This document shows positions 12,282 to 20,969 of a stretch of 32,000 bases of DNA, one piece after another. Below the pieces are notes generated by a model that saw only the letters and a program-made list of their open reading frames with translations, was not told the origin of the DNA and searched no databases. The DNA comes from Planctomycetales bacterium (GTDB taxonomy: Bacteria; 4484-113; JAFGCY01), in NCBI GenBank assembly GCA_022646745.1, contig CP060262.1, forward strand, positions 450,001 through 482,000, given 5' to 3'. Within the stretch, counting starts at the first letter, position 1. Each line of letters begins with the position of its first letter. A program made the position numbers and the translations under genes.

Positions 12282-13738
12282 ACGCTCTGCGCCTTCTTCT
12301 CTCTCACCGGCTCAGCCGAGAACACCCCGTCGCGCAGGTTCGTCAGCTTAAGCTCGACGATGTTGCCAGCTTCTATGCCCTCCTGCACTGGCAGCTGCAC
12401 CACCTGGTAGGCTTCGCCATGGCCGATCAGCATGCCGTCACGCTCCTCCTCGACCAGCACCTGCGAGCTGCGGCCGACGAAGCGTTGCCACTGCTGCTCG
12501 CCGAGCATCGCGCAGTGTGCGATCAGGCGGCGGTTGCGCTCCTGCACGACTTCGCGCGGCAGCTGCGGCAGGCGGCCGGCGCGGGTGCCGGGGCGCGGGG
12601 AATAGGGGAAGCCGTGGATGCGCTCAAAGCGCATATCTGTGCAGAAGTCGAGGGTCTCGGCAAACTGCTCATCCGTCTCCGTCGGGAAGCCGACAAGGAT
12701 GTCCGTTGTCAGCGAACCATGCGGGATCGCCTCGCGGATGCGTGTTGCCACGTTGCGGTAGGTCGCAGTGTCGTACAGTCGACGCATCTCGGTCAGCACT
12801 CCGTCGCTGCCGCTCTGCAGCGGCAGGTGAACGTGCGGGGCCATGCGCGGGTGCTGGAGCTGCCCGTAGAACCGGTCGTCAATGTCCTCCGGCTCGATGG
12901 AGGAGATCCGCAGGCGGGTGCCCTGCGGCAGGCGCCCGAGGATGGCATCGACCAGGTCTGACAGGTCAGGGTGGCCGGGGGTGCGTTCGTAGAGCTTGCC
13001 CATCCGCCAGTGCTTGTCACTGGCAATGTTCTCAATCGTGTCAACCGGGGTCATGCCGTAGTGGCCGATGTTCACGCCGGTCAGCACGATCTCGCGTACG
13101 CCGCCGGCGATGTTGCCATCCACCTGCGCGATGATCTCGTCGAAGGGCAGCGAGGCGTAGGGCCGCACGAAGGGGATGATGCAGAAGGTGCACATGTTGT
13201 GGCAGCCGTCCTGCACCTTGATGAAGGCGCGGCTGCGCCCGAGCCCGACGATGCCGGTGTTGTCAAGGGCGGCAGTGTCAATCGCCTGGCTGCTTTCGTA
13301 GCGGGCCTCGCTGGCCAGCGCATCCGTGCGGCGGGCATTGCCTTCGAGCACCTCGTCCAGGTAGGCGAAGGCCTGCGGATAGAAGTCGAACACCTCGGCC
13401 CCGGCATCACGGTACTGGTCGGAAACAGTGTGGTTGCGCGCGGCGCAGCCTGTGAACAGCACGGAGCTCTGCGGGTGCTCGCGCTTGATGCGGCGCACGA
13501 ACTGGGCGGCCTTGCGCTCGGCCTCCTTTGTGACGCAGCAGGAATTGACGAACACCACCGGCCGCTCGAGCTCATCGCTGCTGGGCAGCTCACTGCCCGT
13601 CAGCTCCAGCGGCTGGTAGCCGTATTTCTTCAGCACATCGGCGAAGGCCACGCTCTCTGAGTAGTTGACCTTGCAGCCGAATGTCTTAATGAACACCGGT
13701 TTCACGGGGGAAATAGTAACATGGCAGACTTCAGACAA
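12278..13738 (-). CDS. mtaB: tRNA methylthiotransferase, MiaB/RimO superfamily, MtaB-like (radical SAM plus TRAM domain)
   Basis: N-terminal 'IKTFGCKVNYSES' (MtaB-type UPF0004 motif), radical-SAM 'VQDGCHNMCTFCIIP', and a C-terminal TRAM-like domain. The 13738 start is a TTG inside repeat C; the in-frame GTG at 13705 is an alternative. Confidence 0.85.
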   Translation of the reverse strand: MSEVCHVTISPVKPVFIKTFGCKVNYSESVAFADVLKKYGYQPLELTGSELPSSDELERPVVFVNSCCVTKEAERKAAQFVRRIKREHPQSSVLFTGCAARNHTVSDQYRDAGAEVFDFYPQAFAYLDEVLEGNARRTDALASEARYESSQAIDTAALDNTGIVGLGRSRAFIKVQDGCHNMCTFCIIPFVRPYASLPFDEIIAQVDGNIAGGVREIVLTGVNIGHYGMTPVDTIENIASDKHWRMGKLYERTPGHPDLSDLVDAILGRLPQGTRLRISSIEPEDIDDRFYGQLQHPRMAPHVHLPLQSGSDGVLTEMRRLYDTATYRNVATRIREAIPHGSLTTDILVGFPTETDEQFAETLDFCTDMRFERIHGFPYSPRPGTRAGRLPQLPREVVQERNRRLIAHCAMLGEQQWQRFVGRSSQVLVEEERDGMLIGHGEAYQVVQLPVQEGIEAGNIVELKLTNLRDGVFSAEPVREKKAQSV

Positions 13739-13828
13739 AAGACGTCAGACTCCAGACTTGCTGGAAGTCACGTATCTGCACACAAGTTGCCGCCCGATGA
13801 TCTGTAGTCTGAAATCTGAAATCTGGAC
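13725..13828. repeat. heptad-armed hairpin repeat 'C'
   Basis: Left arm: CAGACTT CAGACAA AAGACGT CAGACTC CAGACTT. Loop of ~45 nt. Right arm: ATCTGTA GTCTGAA ATCTGAA ATCTGGA. The pentamer cores are complementary. It fills the whole mtaB/membrane-gene spacer. Confidence 0.7.
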
Positions 13829-13829
13829 A

Positions 13830-14648
13830 CTACTGAGGCTGGTCCCACTGGCGGCGGTTGCGCTTCTCCGCCATGCGCATCAGGAAGAGCCCCGGCGCGA
13901 TGACATAGCCAAGGCGCAGCTGCACCTCAGTCAGCCAGAAGCCTGCCTGCGCCTTGAAGCAGTAGCGCGCCAGCCAGGCGGTGTAGAGCAGGCAGTACAC
14001 GGAGTAGTACCAGGGCAGGTCGGACTGGCGCAGTGTGCTGCGGGCAATCACAAGCGTCCAGTAATAGAGCAGCATCGCCACCGGCACTGCCAGCAGCACG
14101 ATACCTACCCGCTTGTAGAAGATGTTGTGCACCCAGGCATTCGGGAACTGGTCGAGCCGCGTGGCAATCAGCATCTGCAGCTCACGCTTGAGCGCCAGTT
14201 CCTCATCCTCATCCTTCGGCGTGTAATGCGCCACCAGGCCATGGGCTTCGAGGAACTCGTCCACCTCCGGGCTGCTGCCGGCGATGGCCTTGTCAATTAC
14301 GTCCATCAGCTGGCCACTGCCAAGCCGGTTGCGCCAGAGCGCACGCTGGATACCGATGGCAAACAGCGCGAGAGTGGACAGCACGCCGGAGAAGTAGAAT
14401 GCCAGGTACAGCGGCCACATCGGGCTCAGGGCAATCTCCTCCTCGATGACAAGCTGGCTGAAGTCCTCACCGGTGTCATAGGCCGTGGCCGAGATCATCA
14501 TCCATGGCCCGAGCATATAAAGCATCATCAGCAGGCCAAACAGGCCGATGATGTACCACCAGACCCAGAACCGCTTTGTCTCTGAGTAGCTGTGCCAGGC
14601 GTACATGGCAACGAGTTCCTCCTCGGGAATCGCCATCAGGCTGTCCAT
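13830..14648 (-). CDS. hypothetical multi-pass membrane protein
   Basis: 272-aa ORF with host-like composition and several hydrophobic helices (e.g. 'FWVWWYIIGLFGLLMMLYMLGPWMMI', 'LYLAFYFSGVLSTLALFAIGI', 'VGIVLLAVPVAMLLYYWTLVI'). No recognised family. Confidence 0.6.
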   Translation of the reverse strand: MDSLMAIPEEELVAMYAWHSYSETKRFWVWWYIIGLFGLLMMLYMLGPWMMISATAYDTGEDFSQLVIEEEIALSPMWPLYLAFYFSGVLSTLALFAIGIQRALWRNRLGSGQLMDVIDKAIAGSSPEVDEFLEAHGLVAHYTPKDEDEELALKRELQMLIATRLDQFPNAWVHNIFYKRVGIVLLAVPVAMLLYYWTLVIARSTLRQSDLPWYYSVYCLLYTAWLARYCFKAQAGFWLTEVQLRLGYVIAPGLFLMRMAEKRNRRQWDQPQ

Positions 14649-15552: not shown

Positions 15553-15898
15553 ACCGGCACTGCTGCAGCTGGCACTGACGGATGGGCAGGTCTGGCTGGC
15601 AATCGCGCTGACCGGCATCGGCACCTTCCTGCTGCGCTTCGTGATGTTCGCCGCACATGGCCGCATCCAGCTGCCGCAGCGCCTGTTCGATGCGCTGAAG
15701 TTCCTCCCGCCGGCGATCCTCGCAGCCCTGGTACTGCCGGCGATCTACCGCAGTGAGCCCTCCGGCTGGGCCCCGCGTGAGCCGGCACACCTGCTGGCGG
15801 GCCTGCTGGCGATCGGCATCGCCTGGCGCACGCGCAACATGCTGGCAACGATCCTCGGCGGGATGATCGCGATGTGGATCCTCGAAATCTGGCTGTAG
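15545..15898 (+). CDS. azlD: AzlD family branched-chain amino-acid transport protein
   Basis: 117 aa, very hydrophobic, overlaps the azlC end by 8 nt. The canonical azlC-azlD pairing is present. Confidence 0.8.
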   Translation: MPEPALLQLALTDGQVWLAIALTGIGTFLLRFVMFAAHGRIQLPQRLFDALKFLPPAILAALVLPAIYRSEPSGWAPREPAHLLAGLLAIGIAWRTRNMLATILGGMIAMWILEIWL

Positions 15899-15902
15899 CG
15901 GA

Positions 15903-15921
15903 GGCCAGGCTGTCAGCCTGG
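15903..15921 (+). terminator. palindromic hairpin immediately after azlD (possible terminator)
   Basis: GCCAGGCTG-T-CAGCCTGGC has 9-nt perfect arms and starts 5 nt after the azlD stop. No U-tract follows. Confidence 0.3.
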
Positions 15922-15925
15922 CAAT

Positions 15926-16026
15926 CAGACGACAGACTTCAGACCTCAGACGACAGATCTTTAATAGTTCCGTACTGCTTCAAAGCCACGGATTGCCCAT
16001 CTGGCGTCTGGGGTCTGATGTCTGGC
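15926..16026. repeat. heptad-armed hairpin repeat 'A'
   Basis: CAGACGA CAGACTT CAGACCT CAGACGA CAGAT, a ~40-nt loop, then ATCTGGC GTCTGGG GTCTGAT GTCTGG. Hand pairing gives ~26 bp with 2 mismatches and 1 wobble. The loop's 3' end, CACGGATTGCCCATCTG, resembles the loop of repeat B. Confidence 0.75.
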
Positions 16027-16221
16027 TTGCAACTCGCATCCGCTCGACTGCCGCGAGGTCTATCAAACGGTTTTGTCAACGCGGAGTCGCTGAGACGCGG
16101 AGAAATCCAATCCTCGTTGCTTGATCATTGAGCTAACTACAATCGTTTCGGGTAATCGAACAATGAACCCCCCACGCCTGCGGCGTGCTGCGCGGCCTCC
16201 TGCCTTGCCGGGATGAATAGT

Positions 16222-16328
16222 CAGATCCCAGACTTTAGACATCAGACTACAGATCCGCACGCGAACCACCCTGCATCAATGCACCGATTGCCATTCTGAT
16301 GTCCGGAGTCTGTTGTCTAATGTCAGAC
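16222..16328. repeat. heptad-armed hairpin repeat 'B' (degenerate)
   Basis: CAGATCC CAGACTT TAGACAT CAGACTA CAGATCC, a ~40-nt loop ending CACCGATTGCCATTCTG, then GAT GTCCGGA GTCTGTT GTCTAAT GTCAGAC. The cores pair; the spacers mostly do not. Confidence 0.65.
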
Positions 16329-16404
16329 AAGCCGCCGGACATTCCGGGTGGGTATCGAAGCGCAGCTGAGATCCACGGGCGGGAATGGCGGACATGCCAG
16401 CCCT

Positions 16405-18818
16405 CACATACTTAACTTAGTTTCTAAGCACTTGAAGATAAAATGTGTATAACTGGTTTGTATTTCCACTTACCTCTTTCAGAATCGTCATACTAGGAAT
16501 TCAAACTAACTAACATTTGCTGTTCGCATTAGCTTGAACATCTAAGTGTTGAGATATTTTTCAAGTAAAATTAGAATTATTGGCACTGGTATAGTAAACA
16601 ATAATACCCTCGAAACCGAAATTAATGGATTCAAAAAATTCTTGAACCACTCCAGCTCTCGAATACATGAAATTTTATTTCCAATTGTCACTATTGCAAA
16701 TAGAGAAGCCCCAAATAACAAGAGACAACAAGGTATAACAGCGAACAATATTTTTACATTACTATTTAAGTCAAGAGTGTACATAAAAAACGGCATCCAA
16801 TAATTCACAGAAGCCAGCACTGCAACCTGTACTCCTGTCAAGACAAACACAGATAAGACAAGATAAATTATTCTACTTGGAAGTTTGGCATAATAATCCA
16901 ATTTTTCATCTTTTCTCTTATCTTCTCCTGATAATGCTTCAATAGTTGCGCTGCTTTTTTGAGACTCTGTTCTTAGTATATCTAGTTGTTCCTTATGCTC
17001 CTGCAGCTCTTTCTGTGCTTCAAGAAGTTTAGTCTTCATTGAGATTGCTTCAGCGCTACTCTGCTCAGCCGACCTTCGAAGTAAGTCTCGCTCAGCACCA
17101 GTTTTGAGCAATTCTTCGGAAATAGTGTCGTTTACCAATGCTACCGCACGAGAATCATCAATTTCATTGTTAATTCTTGAACGCAAGCCGTCGTTTACTA
17201 ACACGCTAGTCATAATGTCTTCACCAAGATCATCGATATTTTCTTGTCGAGATAAAATATTGATGATTTTGTGAGCGGTGTCTTTTGTATCCTCATCGCT
17301 TGACATACCGAGAATTGGCAATTGCACATAACCAATTATCGCTTTATCTAACGCAACTTGTCGAGGTATCCAGAATTGAAGCAAGTTTGCTATGGCAGTA
17401 GGATAGACGCAACTTGAAACTCTTGATCCATTTTTTGCTTGCATTTCCAAATCAAATCCAATGAGCTTTCTATCAAGAGTCACAATCCAGTATTTTGCTT
17501 CGAGTGGAGACTCAACATCAAATCCCCTAGCTTCCCTTACTTTTTGAAACAAAAACATGTCATGATCGGCTCTGTCATATGCTTTTTGCTCATCAAGTTG
17601 TCGATTCATCCTCATTAATCTTTCTTTGTAAGATTCAATTAAATTCAGTTGGAATTGTGCTACTGTTGCCTCTTTTCTAGTAATGGGCATTATCGTAAAG
17701 CCAAATTTCTTTGTTAACACTGTCTTTAGATCTGTTGAGTAAGGTTTTAATATTTCAACTGGATTTGCAGCTTTACCAGTTGCAATTACTTTATCTGCAA
17801 CAATCTTGTAGAAATCTGAATAACCTGACTTTAATATTATTCTTGCAAGTTTGACATCAATTATTCCCTTCTGAGTATTCAGACACAACCATTGAATATG
17901 GGATGCAATTTCTCCCAGTGTTTTTTGCGATATCATCAATCTGTAATTTACACTGCCTCTTACAGCACGTAGCAATTCCATAAGAGAGATGATTGATGAA
18001 TGCGCTGGATGCAAACTAAGCCCCATCGCTGATAAAGCAACATTTGTATCAACATATATATGGAATTCTGGCTTATTTCCTAACTGCGCCTGAATGTGAT
18101 TAAGTGCTTCAATCGAAAGTGAATTTGCCTGGTAAACGAATGAAGCATGCGTGAAAGTAGCTAAGTATGTCGAAACTGCTGCATTTGAAGAAAGTAAAAA
18201 TTGAGCAACTGCTCTACATATAACCTCTCGTTCCTTCTCAGTTTCATAATTCGAGAGGAACGTTGTCAAATCGGTCGAATCATCGAATGTGAATTTTCCA
18301 TTCAAAATGTACTCAAAAGTGGAAACACTATTCCTTGCAAATAACGGAACCAGAAATTGCTCAAGAAACATATCCCAATGTGCATTTTGTGGGTCTAGTC
18401 CTGAGCCCAGAATTGCCTGCAGATATGTTTGTTTGGCCTGTTCTTCAATAGTTAAGTAATGAACTAAATCGTCACTGTATTCCTTTTTAGTTTCCGGTGA
18501 TAACAAATATTTCTTTGATCTTCTTATAAAACGAGTTATTTTTTCCCTTTCGAGATTTTTGCAAATGTTTTCTACTTCCAAGTATTCCAATCTAATGTTG
18601 TATGCGGTCTGTAGAAATTCAATGATTTCTTGAAAACTCAGTTCTTTCTCTGCGCTGAATAGTGCTGCAATGACAAATTGCGTCTTAGCCTTGTTCCACC
18701 ACATGCTCTTGTTTAATTTTACATGAGCGGCGCACTCAATAAATTGGGGCGAAAGAATCTGTCTTTGATTTAGAGTCATAAATGTAACAACTTTACCACA
18801 TTTTTATTACAGTTTACC
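16405..18818. other. compositionally foreign AT-rich islet (putative horizontally acquired insertion), single gene
   Basis: Sampled 60-nt lines are ~32% G+C inside and ~65% just right of 18819. The right edge coincides with the uvrB stop. The left edge (~16405) is less sharp. I saw no integrase, tRNA or flanking direct repeat. Confidence 0.7.
16542..18779 (-). CDS. 745-aa multidomain protein: N-terminal winged-helix-like region, PIN-like nuclease domain, coiled coil, 3-4 C-terminal TM helices
   Basis: The only long ORF in the islet, with an ATG start. Residues 239-249 'FHIYVDTNVAL' match the PIN beta1 motif. Later acidic motifs are 'RADHDMF' (403-409) and 'WIVTLDRKL' (431-439). wHTH-like 'ELSFQEIIEFLQTAYNIRLEYLEVENICKNLEREKITRFIRRSKKYLLSPE'. 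Charged coiled coil at ~560-630. Hydrophobic helices at ~634-660, 676-699 and 722-739. Confidence 0.8.
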   Translation of the reverse strand: MTLNQRQILSPQFIECAAHVKLNKSMWWNKAKTQFVIAALFSAEKELSFQEIIEFLQTAYNIRLEYLEVENICKNLEREKITRFIRRSKKYLLSPETKKEYSDDLVHYLTIEEQAKQTYLQAILGSGLDPQNAHWDMFLEQFLVPLFARNSVSTFEYILNGKFTFDDSTDLTTFLSNYETEKEREVICRAVAQFLLSSNAAVSTYLATFTHASFVYQANSLSIEALNHIQAQLGNKPEFHIYVDTNVALSAMGLSLHPAHSSIISLMELLRAVRGSVNYRLMISQKTLGEIASHIQWLCLNTQKGIIDVKLARIILKSGYSDFYKIVADKVIATGKAANPVEILKPYSTDLKTVLTKKFGFTIMPITRKEATVAQFQLNLIESYKERLMRMNRQLDEQKAYDRADHDMFLFQKVREARGFDVESPLEAKYWIVTLDRKLIGFDLEMQAKNGSRVSSCVYPTAIANLLQFWIPRQVALDKAIIGYVQLPILGMSSDEDTKDTAHKIINILSRQENIDDLGEDIMTSVLVNDGLRSRINNEIDDSRAVALVNDTISEELLKTGAERDLLRRSAEQSSAEAISMKTKLLEAQKELQEHKEQLDILRTESQKSSATIEALSGEDKRKDEKLDYYAKLPSRIIYLVLSVFVLTGVQVAVLASVNYWMPFFMYTLDLNSNVKILFAVIPCCLLLFGASLFAIVTIGNKISCIRELEWFKNFLNPLISVSRVLLFTIPVPIILILLEKYLNT

Positions 18819-20969
18819 CTACCCCACCTTCCCCCGGTTCGCCCCTTCGCTCTTCATCTTGCGGGCCATCTTCTTCGTCAGCGCGTCCACCTGGTCGCGC
18901 ACCAGTGCGGCTTTTTCGAACTCCAGCAGTTCCGCCCACTTGTGCATCTGCGCCTCCAGCTCGGCGACCAGCATTGTCAGTTCGCCGATGCCCATCGCGT
19001 CATGTTCGTCCGGGATGCTCGCCTGGGCGACCTTGATCACCTTCAGGCCGCTTTCCTCCAGCCCTTCCGTGATGTCCTGGATCTTCTTGATGATGGTCTT
19101 CGGCGTGATGCCGTGCTCCTCGTTGAAGGCCAGCTGGATGTCGCGGCGGCGGTTCGTCTCGTCTATCGCGCGCTGCATCGAGGGCGTGATCTTGTCAGCG
19201 TAGAGAATCACCTCACCGTTCACGTTGCGGGCTGCGCGGCCGATGATCTGGATCAGCGAGCGGTCCGAGCGCAGGAAGCCTTCCTTGTCGGCGTCGAGGA
19301 TGCAGATCAGCGAGACCTCTGGCAGGTCGAGGCCCTCCCGCAGCAGGTTGATGCCGACCACCACGTCGTAGGTGCCGAGCCGCAGGTCCTTCAGGATGCG
19401 GATGCGCTCCACGGTGTCAACGTCCGCATGCAGGTACTGCGTCTTCACGCCGCTGTCAGACAGGTAGTCGCTGAGCTTCTCCGCCATGCGCTTCGTGAGC
19501 GTCGTCACCAGTGTGCGCTCGCCGCGCTCGATGCGCCCGCGCACCCGCTCCAAGAGGTCGTCAATCTGGTGCTTGGTGGGCTCGATCACGATCTGCGGGT
19601 CCACGAGCCCGGTCGGGCGGATGATCTGCTCGGCGGTGTTTTCAGTCACCTGCAGTTCATAGGGCCCGGGCGTGGCGGTGGTGTAGATCACCTGGTTGAC
19701 ATACTTCTCCCACTCGTCGAAGCGCAGCGGGCGGTTGTCAAGCGCGCTTGGCAACCTGAAGCCGAAGTCGACGAGTGTCTGCTTGCGCGAGCGGTCGCCG
19801 TTGTACATGCCGTGCAGCTGCGGGATGGTCACATGGCTCTCGTCAATGATCATCAGGAAGTCGTCGGGGAAGTATTCGATCAGGTTTGACGGCGTCTCGC
19901 CCGGCATGCGGCCGTCGAAGTGCCGCGAGTAGTTCTCGATGCCGTTGCAGTAGCCGACGTTCTCGATCATCTCAATGTCGAAGTGCACGCGCTCCTTCAG
20001 GCGCTGGTACTCTAGGAGCTTGCCCTCCTTCTCAAACTTCGCCAGCTGCTCACGGGCCTCGCGGCGGATGCTCTTGATGGCCAGCTCCTGCTTCTCGGGG
20101 ATCAGCACGTAGTGCGTGGCCGGGAAGACGTAGGCCTTCTCCAGCTGCTCCTGCTCCTTCATCGTGACCGGGTCGACGCGGGCGATGCGCTCCAGCTCGT
20201 CGCCGAAGAACTCGAGGCGCAGGATCTCCTCCTTGTCGGCGGAGAAGATCTCGAACACATCGCCCTGCACGCGGAAGGAACCGCGCACCAGCTCGTAGGA
20301 GTTGCGCATGTACTGCATGTCAACCAGGCGGCGGATCAGGTGCTCTCGCCGCACCTCGAAGCCGGGGAACAGCCTGAGGCTGAGCTTCTCGTAGTCCTCG
20401 GGCGAGCCGAGGCCGAAGATGCAGGACACGCTGGCAACGACGATCACATCACGCCGGGTCAGCAGCGCCTCGGTGGCGCTGTGGCGCAGGCGGTCGATCT
20501 CCTCGTTGATCTGGCTGTCCTTCTCGATATAGGTGTCGGTCTTCGGGATGTAGGCCTCGGGCTGGTAGTAGTCGTAGTAGGAGACGAAGTACTCCACGTG
20601 GTTCTCGGGGAAGAACTGGCGGAATTCGGCGCAGAGCTGGGCCGCCAGCGTCTTGTTGTGGCAGATCACGAGCGTGGGCTTCTGGGTGGCCTGGATCACG
20701 TTGGCCATGGTGAAGGTCTTGCCGGTGCCGGTCGCGCCGAGCAGCACCTGGTGCTTCAGCTCACGGCCGACGCCGTCCACCAACGAGGCGATCGCCGTCG
20801 GCTGGTCACCGCCGGGGGTGTAGTCCGCCGCCAGCCTGAACTCACCCTCACGCTGCCAGAAATCGGCCTCCACGGCCGCCGCGCCGAACACATCCTCATT
20901 GACGGGATCGTCACCGGGCAGGCGATGCTGCTCGTCCTCGGATACCTTCCACTTCTTCGCCTTGGGCAT
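18819..20969 (-). CDS. uvrB: excinuclease ABC subunit B
   Basis: '[10 protein letters not shown]', Walker A '[15 protein letters not shown]', helicase motifs and a C-terminal UVR domain '[28 protein letters not shown]'. The ~40-aa N-terminal extension may reflect a later true start (in-frame GTG codons exist). Confidence 0.95.

Follow-up and report, generated by a model that had tools for sequence, protein, structure and literature searches.

An AT-rich islet behind uvrB in a planctomycete genome encodes a candidate membrane-anchored, PIN-like defence nuclease

What kind of gene fills an AT-rich islet that begins directly behind the stop codon of uvrB in an otherwise GC-rich planctomycete genome? 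The islet lies in a 32,000-nucleotide stretch of Planctomycetales bacterium DNA (GTDB lineage Bacteria; 4484-113; JAFGCY01; GenBank assembly GCA_022646745.1, contig CP060262.1, positions 450,001 to 482,000 of the forward strand), referred to here as the window, and it holds a single open reading frame (ORF) of 745 residues, which the initial annotation of the window, made from the letters alone, had read as a horizontally acquired, membrane-tethered nuclease that might serve in phage defence. The answer that we consider probable, although well short of assured, is that the islet gene is a horizontally acquired, self-contained, single-protein defence nuclease. The islet and its gene are located as follows:

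16405..18818, no strand: AT-rich islet, beginning directly after the uvrB stop codon (composition profile and sequence at both boundaries).
16542..18779, minus strand: ORF of 745 residues including the stop codon, with an ATG start, the only gene of the islet (ORF list).

The architecture of the encoded protein was derived from an AlphaFold2 (AF2) model built on an alignment of 134 sequences, in which the aligned relatives are ~24% identical to the window protein, and which has a predicted local distance difference test score (pLDDT) of 85.4 and a predicted template-modelling score (pTM) of 0.68; an earlier AF2 run on 3 sequences gave a pLDDT of 47 and was unusable. From the N-terminus onward, the protein is divided into the following regions:

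18702..18779, minus strand: conserved N-terminal helix, residues 1–26 (L9, L22 and W27 at least 90% conserved in the 134 sequences).
18501..18701, minus strand: predicted winged helix-turn-helix of three helices and a beta hairpin, residues 27–93 (AF2, pLDDT >90; Foldseek).
18081..18500, minus strand: predicted all-helical domain, moderately conserved, residues 94–233 (AF2; W135 and the column of S151 99% conserved).
17340..18080, minus strand: predicted PIN-like nuclease domain, residues 234–480 (Foldseek, conservation, Pfam matches in relatives).
17157..17339, minus strand: predicted helical linker, residues 481–541 (AF2; moderately conserved D495, column of K499, I505, L532 and R533).
16881..17156, minus strand: predicted charged coiled-coil stalk of ~90 residues, residues 542–633 (AF2).
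16545..16880, minus strand: three predicted transmembrane helices, residues ~634–660, 671–704 and 718–744 (hydropathy scan).

The region on which the nuclease assignment turns is residues 234–480. The AF2 model, with pLDDT mostly above 90 in this region, places strands at 238–243, 277–284, 361–364 and 430–433, with a helical insert at 285–357 and two helices following strand 3. When the model was compared with the Protein Data Bank (PDB) using Foldseek, the top matches were PIN-fold nucleases, namely HARP RNase P (7og5, prob 0.98, target-normalised template-modelling score (TMt) 0.52), AF1683 (1w8i, prob 0.96, TMt 0.46) and PAE0151 (2fe1, prob 0.80), and the next ones, 8kda and 7e8j, are further HARP and PRORP entries. 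Weak Pfam PIN matches are also found in some of the relatives, with PIN_12 matched by 5 of the 65 members searched (best E = 2e-5), PIN by 4/65 and PIN_3 by 2/65. The predicted fold, a three-layer alpha/beta/alpha arrangement, thus places the protein in the PIN-like superfamily, in agreement with the initial annotation, which had recognised a PIN signature in the first strand.

Conservation across the 134 sequences is concentrated in the same domain, to which 30 of the 46 columns at or above the 90% level belong, including all of the invariant ones: D244, N246, T287, E290, D407 and R418. A further two positions, D436 and D443, are 99% conserved, and the 90% level is also reached by T245, H406, W431, T434, W470, P472 and R473. 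In the model, D244 is located after strand 1, T287 and E290 are at the start of the helix that succeeds strand 2, and T434 and D436 come after strand 4, so that the conserved acidic positions match the metal-ligand sites of PIN enzymes and would be compatible with a metal-dependent nuclease, with D244, (T287) E290, D407, D436 and D443 as candidate active-site residues. The four motifs originally quoted (FHIYVDTNVAL at 239–249, LMELL at 266–270, RADHDMF at 403–409 and WIVTLDRKL at 431–439) are indeed at those residues, and D244, D407 and D436 from the acidic cluster proposed on their basis are conserved; E268 and D405 are not, with E290 conserved instead and the H406–D407 pair retained.

The membrane part of the protein presents a different pattern, since hydrophobic C-terminal segments are present in all 134 relatives according to the hydropathy scan even though their sequence is unconserved, and not one column of the coiled coil or the transmembrane region reaches 90% conservation. 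AF2 predicts one continuous helix over residues 542–668, in which the stalk runs into the first transmembrane helix, followed by two more hydrophobic helices at 674–744. Both the coiled coil and the three to four hydrophobic C-terminal helices of the first description are therefore borne out, the latter as three transmembrane helices by hydropathy. Furthermore, DUF2207_C, a membrane domain, is matched by 20/65 members, family members of ~720–770 residues have 2–4 predicted transmembrane helices, the charges flanking these helices fit an N-in, C-out topology, and almost no periplasmic sequence is predicted by the hydropathy scan. The coiled-coil stalk gave only coiled-coil-type chance matches in Pfam, PADLOC and the PDB. 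Such a pattern, with conservation focused on the PIN-like domain and lacking in the stalk and the membrane helices, argues that the putative nuclease is the functional core of the protein and that the membrane part serves as a generic anchor and oligomerisation device.

The winged-helix part of the N-terminal head is likewise variable. The winged helix, which had been noticed in the initial reading and which AF2 models at residues 27–93, returns Foldseek matches at prob 0.98–1.00 to LmrR (4zzd, prob 0.99, TMt 0.64), IclR (5tjj), TtgV and the F93 protein of the virus STIV (2co5, prob 1.00, TMt 0.64); the corresponding sequence-profile match to F93, with E = 0.055, is below significance. Just two of its columns are conserved at 90% or more. 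For the all-helical domain at residues 94–233, no structural match could be assigned.

The composition of the islet is that of foreign DNA. All 300-nucleotide windows from ~16450 to 18850 have a GC fraction of 0.33–0.41, whereas from 18850 upward, on the uvrB side, the profile lies at 0.61–0.65, and the islet as a whole has 35% GC against a planctomycete host background of 61–69%. The abrupt drop first described at the uvrB stop codon (18819–18821) is clearly reproduced. The recovery described near 16405 is only partial, in that GC does rise there, but to ~0.54 across a repeat-rich spacer at 15850–16450, and reaches 0.64–0.69 only below ~15900.

The same bias is found in relatives of the gene. 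To compare loci, we collected homologs from 13 GTDB species genomes (Acidobacteriota, Chloroflexota, Actinomycetota, Planctomycetota, Prevotellaceae, Rokubacteriota and Pseudomonas japonica 66C3), 80 metagenomic contigs, 2 IMG/VR contigs and 3 Logan contigs, which gene calling and de-replication reduced to 75 non-redundant locus groups, with neighbours annotated by Pfam and PADLOC. The GC content of the homolog is below that of its flanks in 57/60 non-redundant loci (mean difference -0.08). Together with the foreign GC in the window, these data support a foreign, horizontally acquired origin of the islet gene, as had been proposed. In one IMG/VR contig (L097, 7917-10295), the homolog has a GC fraction of 0.38 against 0.66 in the flanks, an islet sharper than that of the window.

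The family to which the protein belongs is large, diverse and uniform in architecture. An exhaustive HMMER search of 1.84 billion representatives recovered 779 clusters (50% identity) with a threshold of E <= 1e-3, of which 348 also pass E <= 1e-30; almost all have members of 700–790 residues that are 24–30% identical to the window protein. A word-indexed homolog search, in contrast, returned 3 proteins only (the window gene and two Logan sequences), alignment queries included, as the k-mer-prefiltered search found 3 relatives even with a 65-sequence alignment as the query; the indexed search is misleading here because families at ~25% identity can look like orphans in it. The family is spread over Planctomycetota, Acidobacteriota, Chloroflexota, Actinomycetota, Bacteroidota, Pseudomonadota and others in a sporadic manner that does not match the species tree.

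No existing model in Pfam, NCBIfam or PADLOC covers this family, and searches of the window protein against these three collections and the PDB sequences gave nothing significant. In PADLOC-DB v2.0.0 (2023, including its PDC candidates), the window protein has only a coiled-coil-region match (E = 0.0054), and no model is matched by more than one of the 65 members, the single matches being to coiled coils, in line with the initial impression that this is not a named system. A full-family profile search of PDB sequences returned coiled-coil or chance matches only, and a fold search of BFVD returned only long-helix artefacts, such as tape-measure proteins. That the family has escaped these collections is probably explained by its occurrence in mainly uncultured lineages and by the low identity, only ~25%, between its members. 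The only carrier that we saw in a cultured isolate is Pseudomonas japonica 66C3 (L016:9962-12193, NZ_JAAMQU010000019.1), which would be convenient for experiments; the neighbour of its homolog is a divergent DUF3800 gene, which weakly matches PDC-M04A in PADLOC.

The link to defence is provided by the genomic contexts of these relatives, among which the homolog (X) takes up the following positions:

Type I restriction-modification (R-M), HsdM–HsdS–X–HsdR, with junctions from a 14-nucleotide overlap to a 24-nucleotide gap: L052, L080, L089, L096, L094.
Mixed restriction, GmrSD–X–HsdR: L057.
Type III-like, N6_N4 Mod-like methyltransferase–X–ResIII helicase: L049, L019, L051.
Type IIG/Mrr, SNF2 helicase–type IIG/DrmMI-like methyltransferase–X–Mrr: L023, L029, L069, part of L035, L009, L001/L002 (8-nucleotide overlap).
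Hma, UvrD helicase–HmaB–HmaC–X: L010/L013.
Adjacent defence genes: Mrr (L006); methyltransferase–RAMA (L008); IetA–IetS (L014); DUF3800 (L016).

Relatives are thus embedded in operons of four kinds (Type I, Type III-like, Type IIG/Mrr and Hma) and also adjoin Mrr, GmrSD, IetAS and DUF3800 genes, and the neighbourhood comparison suggested at the outset favours a defence role. A restriction or defence gene is located within three genes of the homolog in 14 of the 32 non-redundant loci for which each flank extends over at least 2 kb. In a neighbour-joining tree of the family, the defence contexts are scattered over separate branches, and the associations with defence genes have therefore arisen repeatedly, such that the co-location with known defence genes is both recurrent and phylogenetically independent. 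The description of the gene as "lone", which is accurate for the window, does not extend to the family, where about a third of the members are embedded in operons; many other occurrences are lone. Across the 75 non-redundant loci, no small partner or antitoxin-like ORF is conserved beside the homolog. It is the lack of such a partner, together with the many lone copies and a promoter-like element belonging to the gene itself in one clade (see below), that argues for an autonomous module.

A number of observations weigh against a self-contained defence nuclease, and these begin with the protein itself. All Foldseek E-values of the whole-chain query exceed 0.1 (0.1–2), as expected when a 745-residue query meets domains of 100–150 residues. 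The window protein matches the Pfam PIN model (PF01850) only at E = 1.1, below threshold, with residues 241–295 aligned to profile positions 1–45, and a profile search of PDB sequences with the PIN region found no PIN match. In addition, the window copy is the most divergent member of the family, agreeing with the consensus at 37/46 conserved columns where all others agree at 38 or more (median 44); D380, which is 93% conserved in the family, is missing from it, and selection on this copy could be relaxed. Its ORF is nevertheless intact and retains all of the invariant putative catalytic residues. At the level of the loci, about half of those with sufficient flanks have no recognisable defence neighbour, one clade occupies a semi-conserved position beside uvrB, and the tight operon coupling in the R-M loci fits partner dependence as well as it does autonomy. 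Finally, non-self matches to a 22-protein reference set are found for 24/149 near genes against 1/147 genes more than five positions away, an enrichment that is biased upward because the references were drawn from near neighbours, and that is supportive only.

Taking these points into account, it is instructive to compare the family with known systems. The nearest Pfam family is PIN_12/DUF4935 (PF16289), from the VapC structural group, in which a long insert follows strand S2 and two helices follow strand S3 (Matelska et al. 2017, PMC5499597). The two have in common the alpha/beta/alpha fold, a "DTN" after strand 1, T..E after strand 2 and T.D after strand 4, as well as four to five conserved acidic residues, this pattern of inserts and usually monocistronic genes. 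However, the PIN_12/DUF4935 proteins are soluble, of ~350 residues, and combine an N-terminal PIN domain with a C-terminal alpha/beta region, whereas the present family adds a winged-helix and helical head, a coiled coil and transmembrane helices; because of this difference in architecture, and as the window protein does not match the PIN_12 model, we do not assign it to PIN_12/DUF4935.

A functional parallel is offered by DS-3 (WP_022645725.1), a single-protein "split PIN" anti-phage system that was validated in E. coli by DefensePredictor and that requires its catalytic residues for defence (PMC13092281). Both are single proteins with no antitoxin and a PIN core interrupted by a large helical insertion, and their strand-1 motifs are akin (MIIDTNILYSLVGLS vs FVDTNFLFSxLGLH), but DS-3 has only 340 residues and no winged helix, coiled coil or membrane anchor. 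Homology to DS-3 was rejected, as only 19–20 residues align (hhalign E = 1.2e-3, probability 19.5%; hidden Markov model score ~6 bits (6.2)), and so was homology to DS-5, which is limited to the generic strand-1 motif. A combination of PIN nuclease and membrane anchor is also present in PIN.COG4956 (PIN-TRAM, with four N-terminal transmembrane helices; PMC5499597), which differs in that its anchor is N-terminal rather than C-terminal, it carries a TRAM domain and not a winged helix, it is a conserved family of housekeeping type, and it has no sequence match to the present family. A VapBC-type module can be discarded, since there is no adjacent small antitoxin gene in the islet, which has no room for a second gene (39 nucleotides upstream and 137 AT-rich nucleotides downstream), and none is conserved across the 75 loci.

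With regard to genomic placement, PrrC is embedded in a Type I locus, EcoprrI (PMC12707154), as is TgvAB (PMC11411939), and "guilt by embedding" has yielded validated HEC defence systems (10.1101/2024.01.29.577857). The slot between hsdS and hsdR is common to PrrC/RloC, TgvAB and at least five non-redundant relatives of the window protein, although not to the window copy itself, whose neighbours are uvrB and AzlCD. PrrC consists of an ABC ATPase and an anticodon-nuclease domain and TgvAB is GmrSD-like, both folds being unrelated to the present family, which moreover is found in Type III-like, Type IIG/Mrr and Hma loci, is predicted to be membrane-anchored and is often lone. Identity with PrrC/RloC was likewise rejected, on the basis that no ATPase or PrrC/RloC match was obtained in Pfam, NCBIfam or PADLOC and that the predicted fold is winged helix plus PIN. 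The Hma-embedded HEC-03B PIN and HEC-09 HTH (helix-turn-helix) + NYN proteins (Payne et al. 2024) were found by the same embedding logic as our Hma-embedded relatives, and HEC-09 also combines an N-terminal HTH with a PIN-like nuclease; in contrast to the present family, HEC-03 needs an ABC ATPase partner, and HEC-09 has a C-terminal NYN domain and no reported membrane part, and gave no defence.

Our literature searches found no description of a winged helix–PIN–coiled coil–transmembrane defence protein. What is new is therefore the combination of folds, which lies outside Pfam, NCBIfam and PADLOC v2.0.0, while single-protein nuclease defence and embedding in R-M loci are known; the candidate is solid and testable, but is not a categorically new mechanism.

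If the islet gene does encode a single-protein defence nuclease, its product would be anchored in the inner membrane by the three C-terminal helices and probably oligomerise via the ~90-residue coiled-coil stalk, with the winged-helix and helical head and the metal-dependent PIN-like nuclease facing the cytoplasm. The head would recognise an infection cue, which may be invading nucleic acid or a phage protein, and thereby release the PIN nuclease. Most PIN enzymes of the VapC group cut RNA, and the released nuclease could cut RNA, or else entering DNA at the membrane, stopping the propagation of the phage or plasmid, either by abortive infection, as first suggested, or by direct interference. 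Inside R-M-type operons, the protein would form a co-transcribed second layer of defence, as PrrC or TgvAB do in Type I loci, whereas in this genome the gene stands alone and is probably read through from uvrB.

How the window gene is expressed, and why it should be located next to uvrB, bears on several of the alternatives. The elements concerned are as follows:

18780..18818, minus strand: AT-rich spacer of 39 nucleotides from the uvrB stop to the ORF start (sequence; promoter and terminator scan).
18819..20969, minus strand: uvrB, the co-directional upstream host gene, which is context and not part of the module (Pfam UvrB_inter, UvrB, UVR, Helicase_C).
L022:3383-3534, L026:911-1044 and L030:318-469, also L031, L039 and L028: sigma-70-type promoter-like element upstream of the homolog.

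Scanning around the window gene for promoters and terminators yielded nothing above shuffled expectation, and the lack of a promoter-like or terminator site in the 39-nucleotide spacer suggests read-through from uvrB as a plausible mode of transcription. The gene is in tandem with uvrB, 39 nucleotides downstream of it. A separate clade, represented by six non-redundant metagenomic loci (those in the last line above), is arranged head-to-head with uvrB; its members are 43–71% identical to each other and ~24% identical to the window protein, and the two arrangements are independent associations with uvrB. We note, however, that this double coincidence is marginal, at ~0.03 a priori, and not significant post hoc. 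It may reflect an insertion hotspot, regulatory piggy-backing or a link to superfamily 2 (SF2) translocases. In the head-to-head clade, the conserved promoter-like element upstream of the homolog consists of TTGACA, 17 nucleotides, and then TGGTGAAAT or TATAGT, and its presence points to independent transcription of these homologs. A conserved GCTCTATTGTAGC element was also seen beside the uvrB start in three loci of this clade.

The extent of the gene also differs from its public annotation. The window ORF is a 100% match to a hypothetical protein of an NCBI metagenome-assembled genome of Planctomycetales (H7A35_01950, 720 residues), which begins at M26 and so omits residues 1–26. As residues 9–27 are conserved family-wide, the true start is probably M1, at 18779, and not M26.

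The alternative that survives best is that the protein is a partner-dependent guardian or accessory subunit of R-M-type systems on the PrrC paradigm, kept latent by methyltransferase or SF2 translocase subunits, or acting together with them, and firing when restriction is blocked, with the window copy orphaned and possibly inactive or decaying. We consider this unlikely, but deserving of serious attention, as the homologs are translationally coupled between R-M subunits in four system classes (overlaps of 4–14 nucleotides, gaps of 2–26 nucleotides), in a slot equal to that of PrrC in EcoprrI, and as the window copy, which departs from 9/46 conserved columns, is the most divergent. Four unrelated types of partner system nevertheless make one specific interface unlikely, at least 18 of the 32 well-flanked loci have no R-M-type neighbour, the uvrB clade has a promoter of its own, and the window ORF is intact with all of its invariant putative catalytic residues. 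Furthermore, the embedded BrxU, HEC-05 and HEC-06 act independently of their host systems (PMC11411939; 10.1101/2024.01.29.577857).

A more speculative variant, which we regard as doubtful, would generalise this logic: the protein could be a general "guardian" nuclease at the membrane, able to join several unrelated immune systems built on DNA translocases (Type I, Type III, Type IIG/SNF2 and Hma), while UvrB would be the resident translocase wherever an R-M system is lacking. The winged-helix head would detect either SF2 motors that have stalled or been inhibited, or DNA as it enters at the membrane, whereupon the PIN nuclease would fire. Were this true, the PrrC paradigm would gain a new fold, a membrane location and four system classes at once, and the odd double association with uvrB would be explained.

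It is improbable that the gene is a selfish toxin, an addiction gene or a cargo that stabilises mobile DNA, being toxic when deregulated and not protecting its host. The patchy distribution, foreign composition and location in variable islands would fit this as well, and PIN domains are the classic toxins of VapBC modules (PMC5499597). Against it stand the lack of a conserved antitoxin-like partner, the lack of any tblastn match to the family in 72,556 plasmid records (PLSDB) or 50,697 phage genomes (INPHARED), the lack, at the islet and next to it, of an integrase, a transposase or convincing terminal repeats, and a large multi-domain build with a sensor-like head that is unlike addiction toxins. 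In one IMG/VR contig (L098, 1902-4214), a homolog is located near a tail-fibre/depolymerase gene, which suggests that the family is occasionally prophage cargo.

It is very improbable that the protein is a membrane nuclease with a housekeeping or repair role, functionally linked to UvrB and other SF2 translocases and processing, for instance, damaged DNA: uvrB is a neighbour both here, in tandem, and independently in the six-locus head-to-head clade, and the neighbouring HsdR, Res and SNF2 proteins share a ResIII/Helicase_C core with UvrB, but the family is sporadic across phyla with foreign GC in nearly all loci compared, most loci have no uvrB nearby, the coincidence is marginal, and the genes of the uvrB clade have their own promoter. 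We give hardly any credence to a non-catalytic PIN-like domain, in either a membrane-tethered winged-helix regulator or scaffold with ToxR-like logic or a protein whose membrane segment is the effector (pore formation or depolarisation), since, for all that an N-terminal winged helix with a membrane anchor resembles membrane-bound transcription regulators, that many defence effectors are transmembrane proteins, and that no PIN model is matched significantly by the window protein at sequence level, it is acidic and polar residues, at the canonical active-site positions of PIN enzymes, that are most strongly constrained, compared with two highly conserved columns in the winged helix and none in the coiled coil and transmembrane region, and almost no periplasmic sequence is available for sensing.

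The favoured reading, that of a self-contained defence nuclease, would, if true, add a widespread immune module that consists of one gene and is found in many phyla, in a family of at least 779 clusters at 50% identity. In such a protein, a PIN nuclease would be tethered to the inner membrane and preceded by a winged-helix head that evolves fast, making it testable how such a nuclease is silenced without an antitoxin, and whether its position at the membrane serves to intercept phage nucleic acid as it enters. The repeated insertion into four restriction-type systems, between their subunits, would, in turn, be an independent case for the principle of "embedded defence", and the embedded relatives offer natural paired systems for testing layered immunity.

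Beyond the islet itself, the AzlC/AzlD genes (Pfam) are convergent on its other side, and the next large genes encode a MiaB/RimO-like methylthiotransferase and a PQQ beta-propeller protein; with uvrB on the near side, the surroundings of the islet are therefore housekeeping. No R-M system, integrase or transposase lies beside the islet, no tRNA genes were found at the islet, no Rfam family matches it, and there are no convincing terminal or flanking repeats. The sole candidate for the latter is a weak, imperfect 19-nucleotide inverted repeat (16440-16458 / 18786-18804, core AAAATGTG / CACATTTT) less than 40 nucleotides from each islet end, with a rough chance estimate of p ~0.05, which could be the remnant of an insertion event or a coincidence.

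The spacer between AzlD and the islet contains two long imperfect hairpins of CAGAC/GTCTG-type repeats (15933-16025 and 16229-16312), for which RNAfold gives -71 kcal/mol (161 nucleotides) and -41 kcal/mol (146 nucleotides) over the enclosing stretches. These hairpins have no Rfam match, and the density of the motif near 13600-13900 is similar to that in the spacer; they may be repetitive extragenic palindromic (REP)-like or miniature inverted-repeat transposable element (MITE)-like elements, or a structured RNA. Lastly, downstream of the IIG-embedded homolog in L001 are a gene for a 197-residue protein with no family match (L001:4669-5262) and one for a protein of ~300 residues with weak DUF5655 / PDC-S18 matches (L001:5376-6323), the latter recurring in L080, and both of these may be further uncharacterised defence-island genes.

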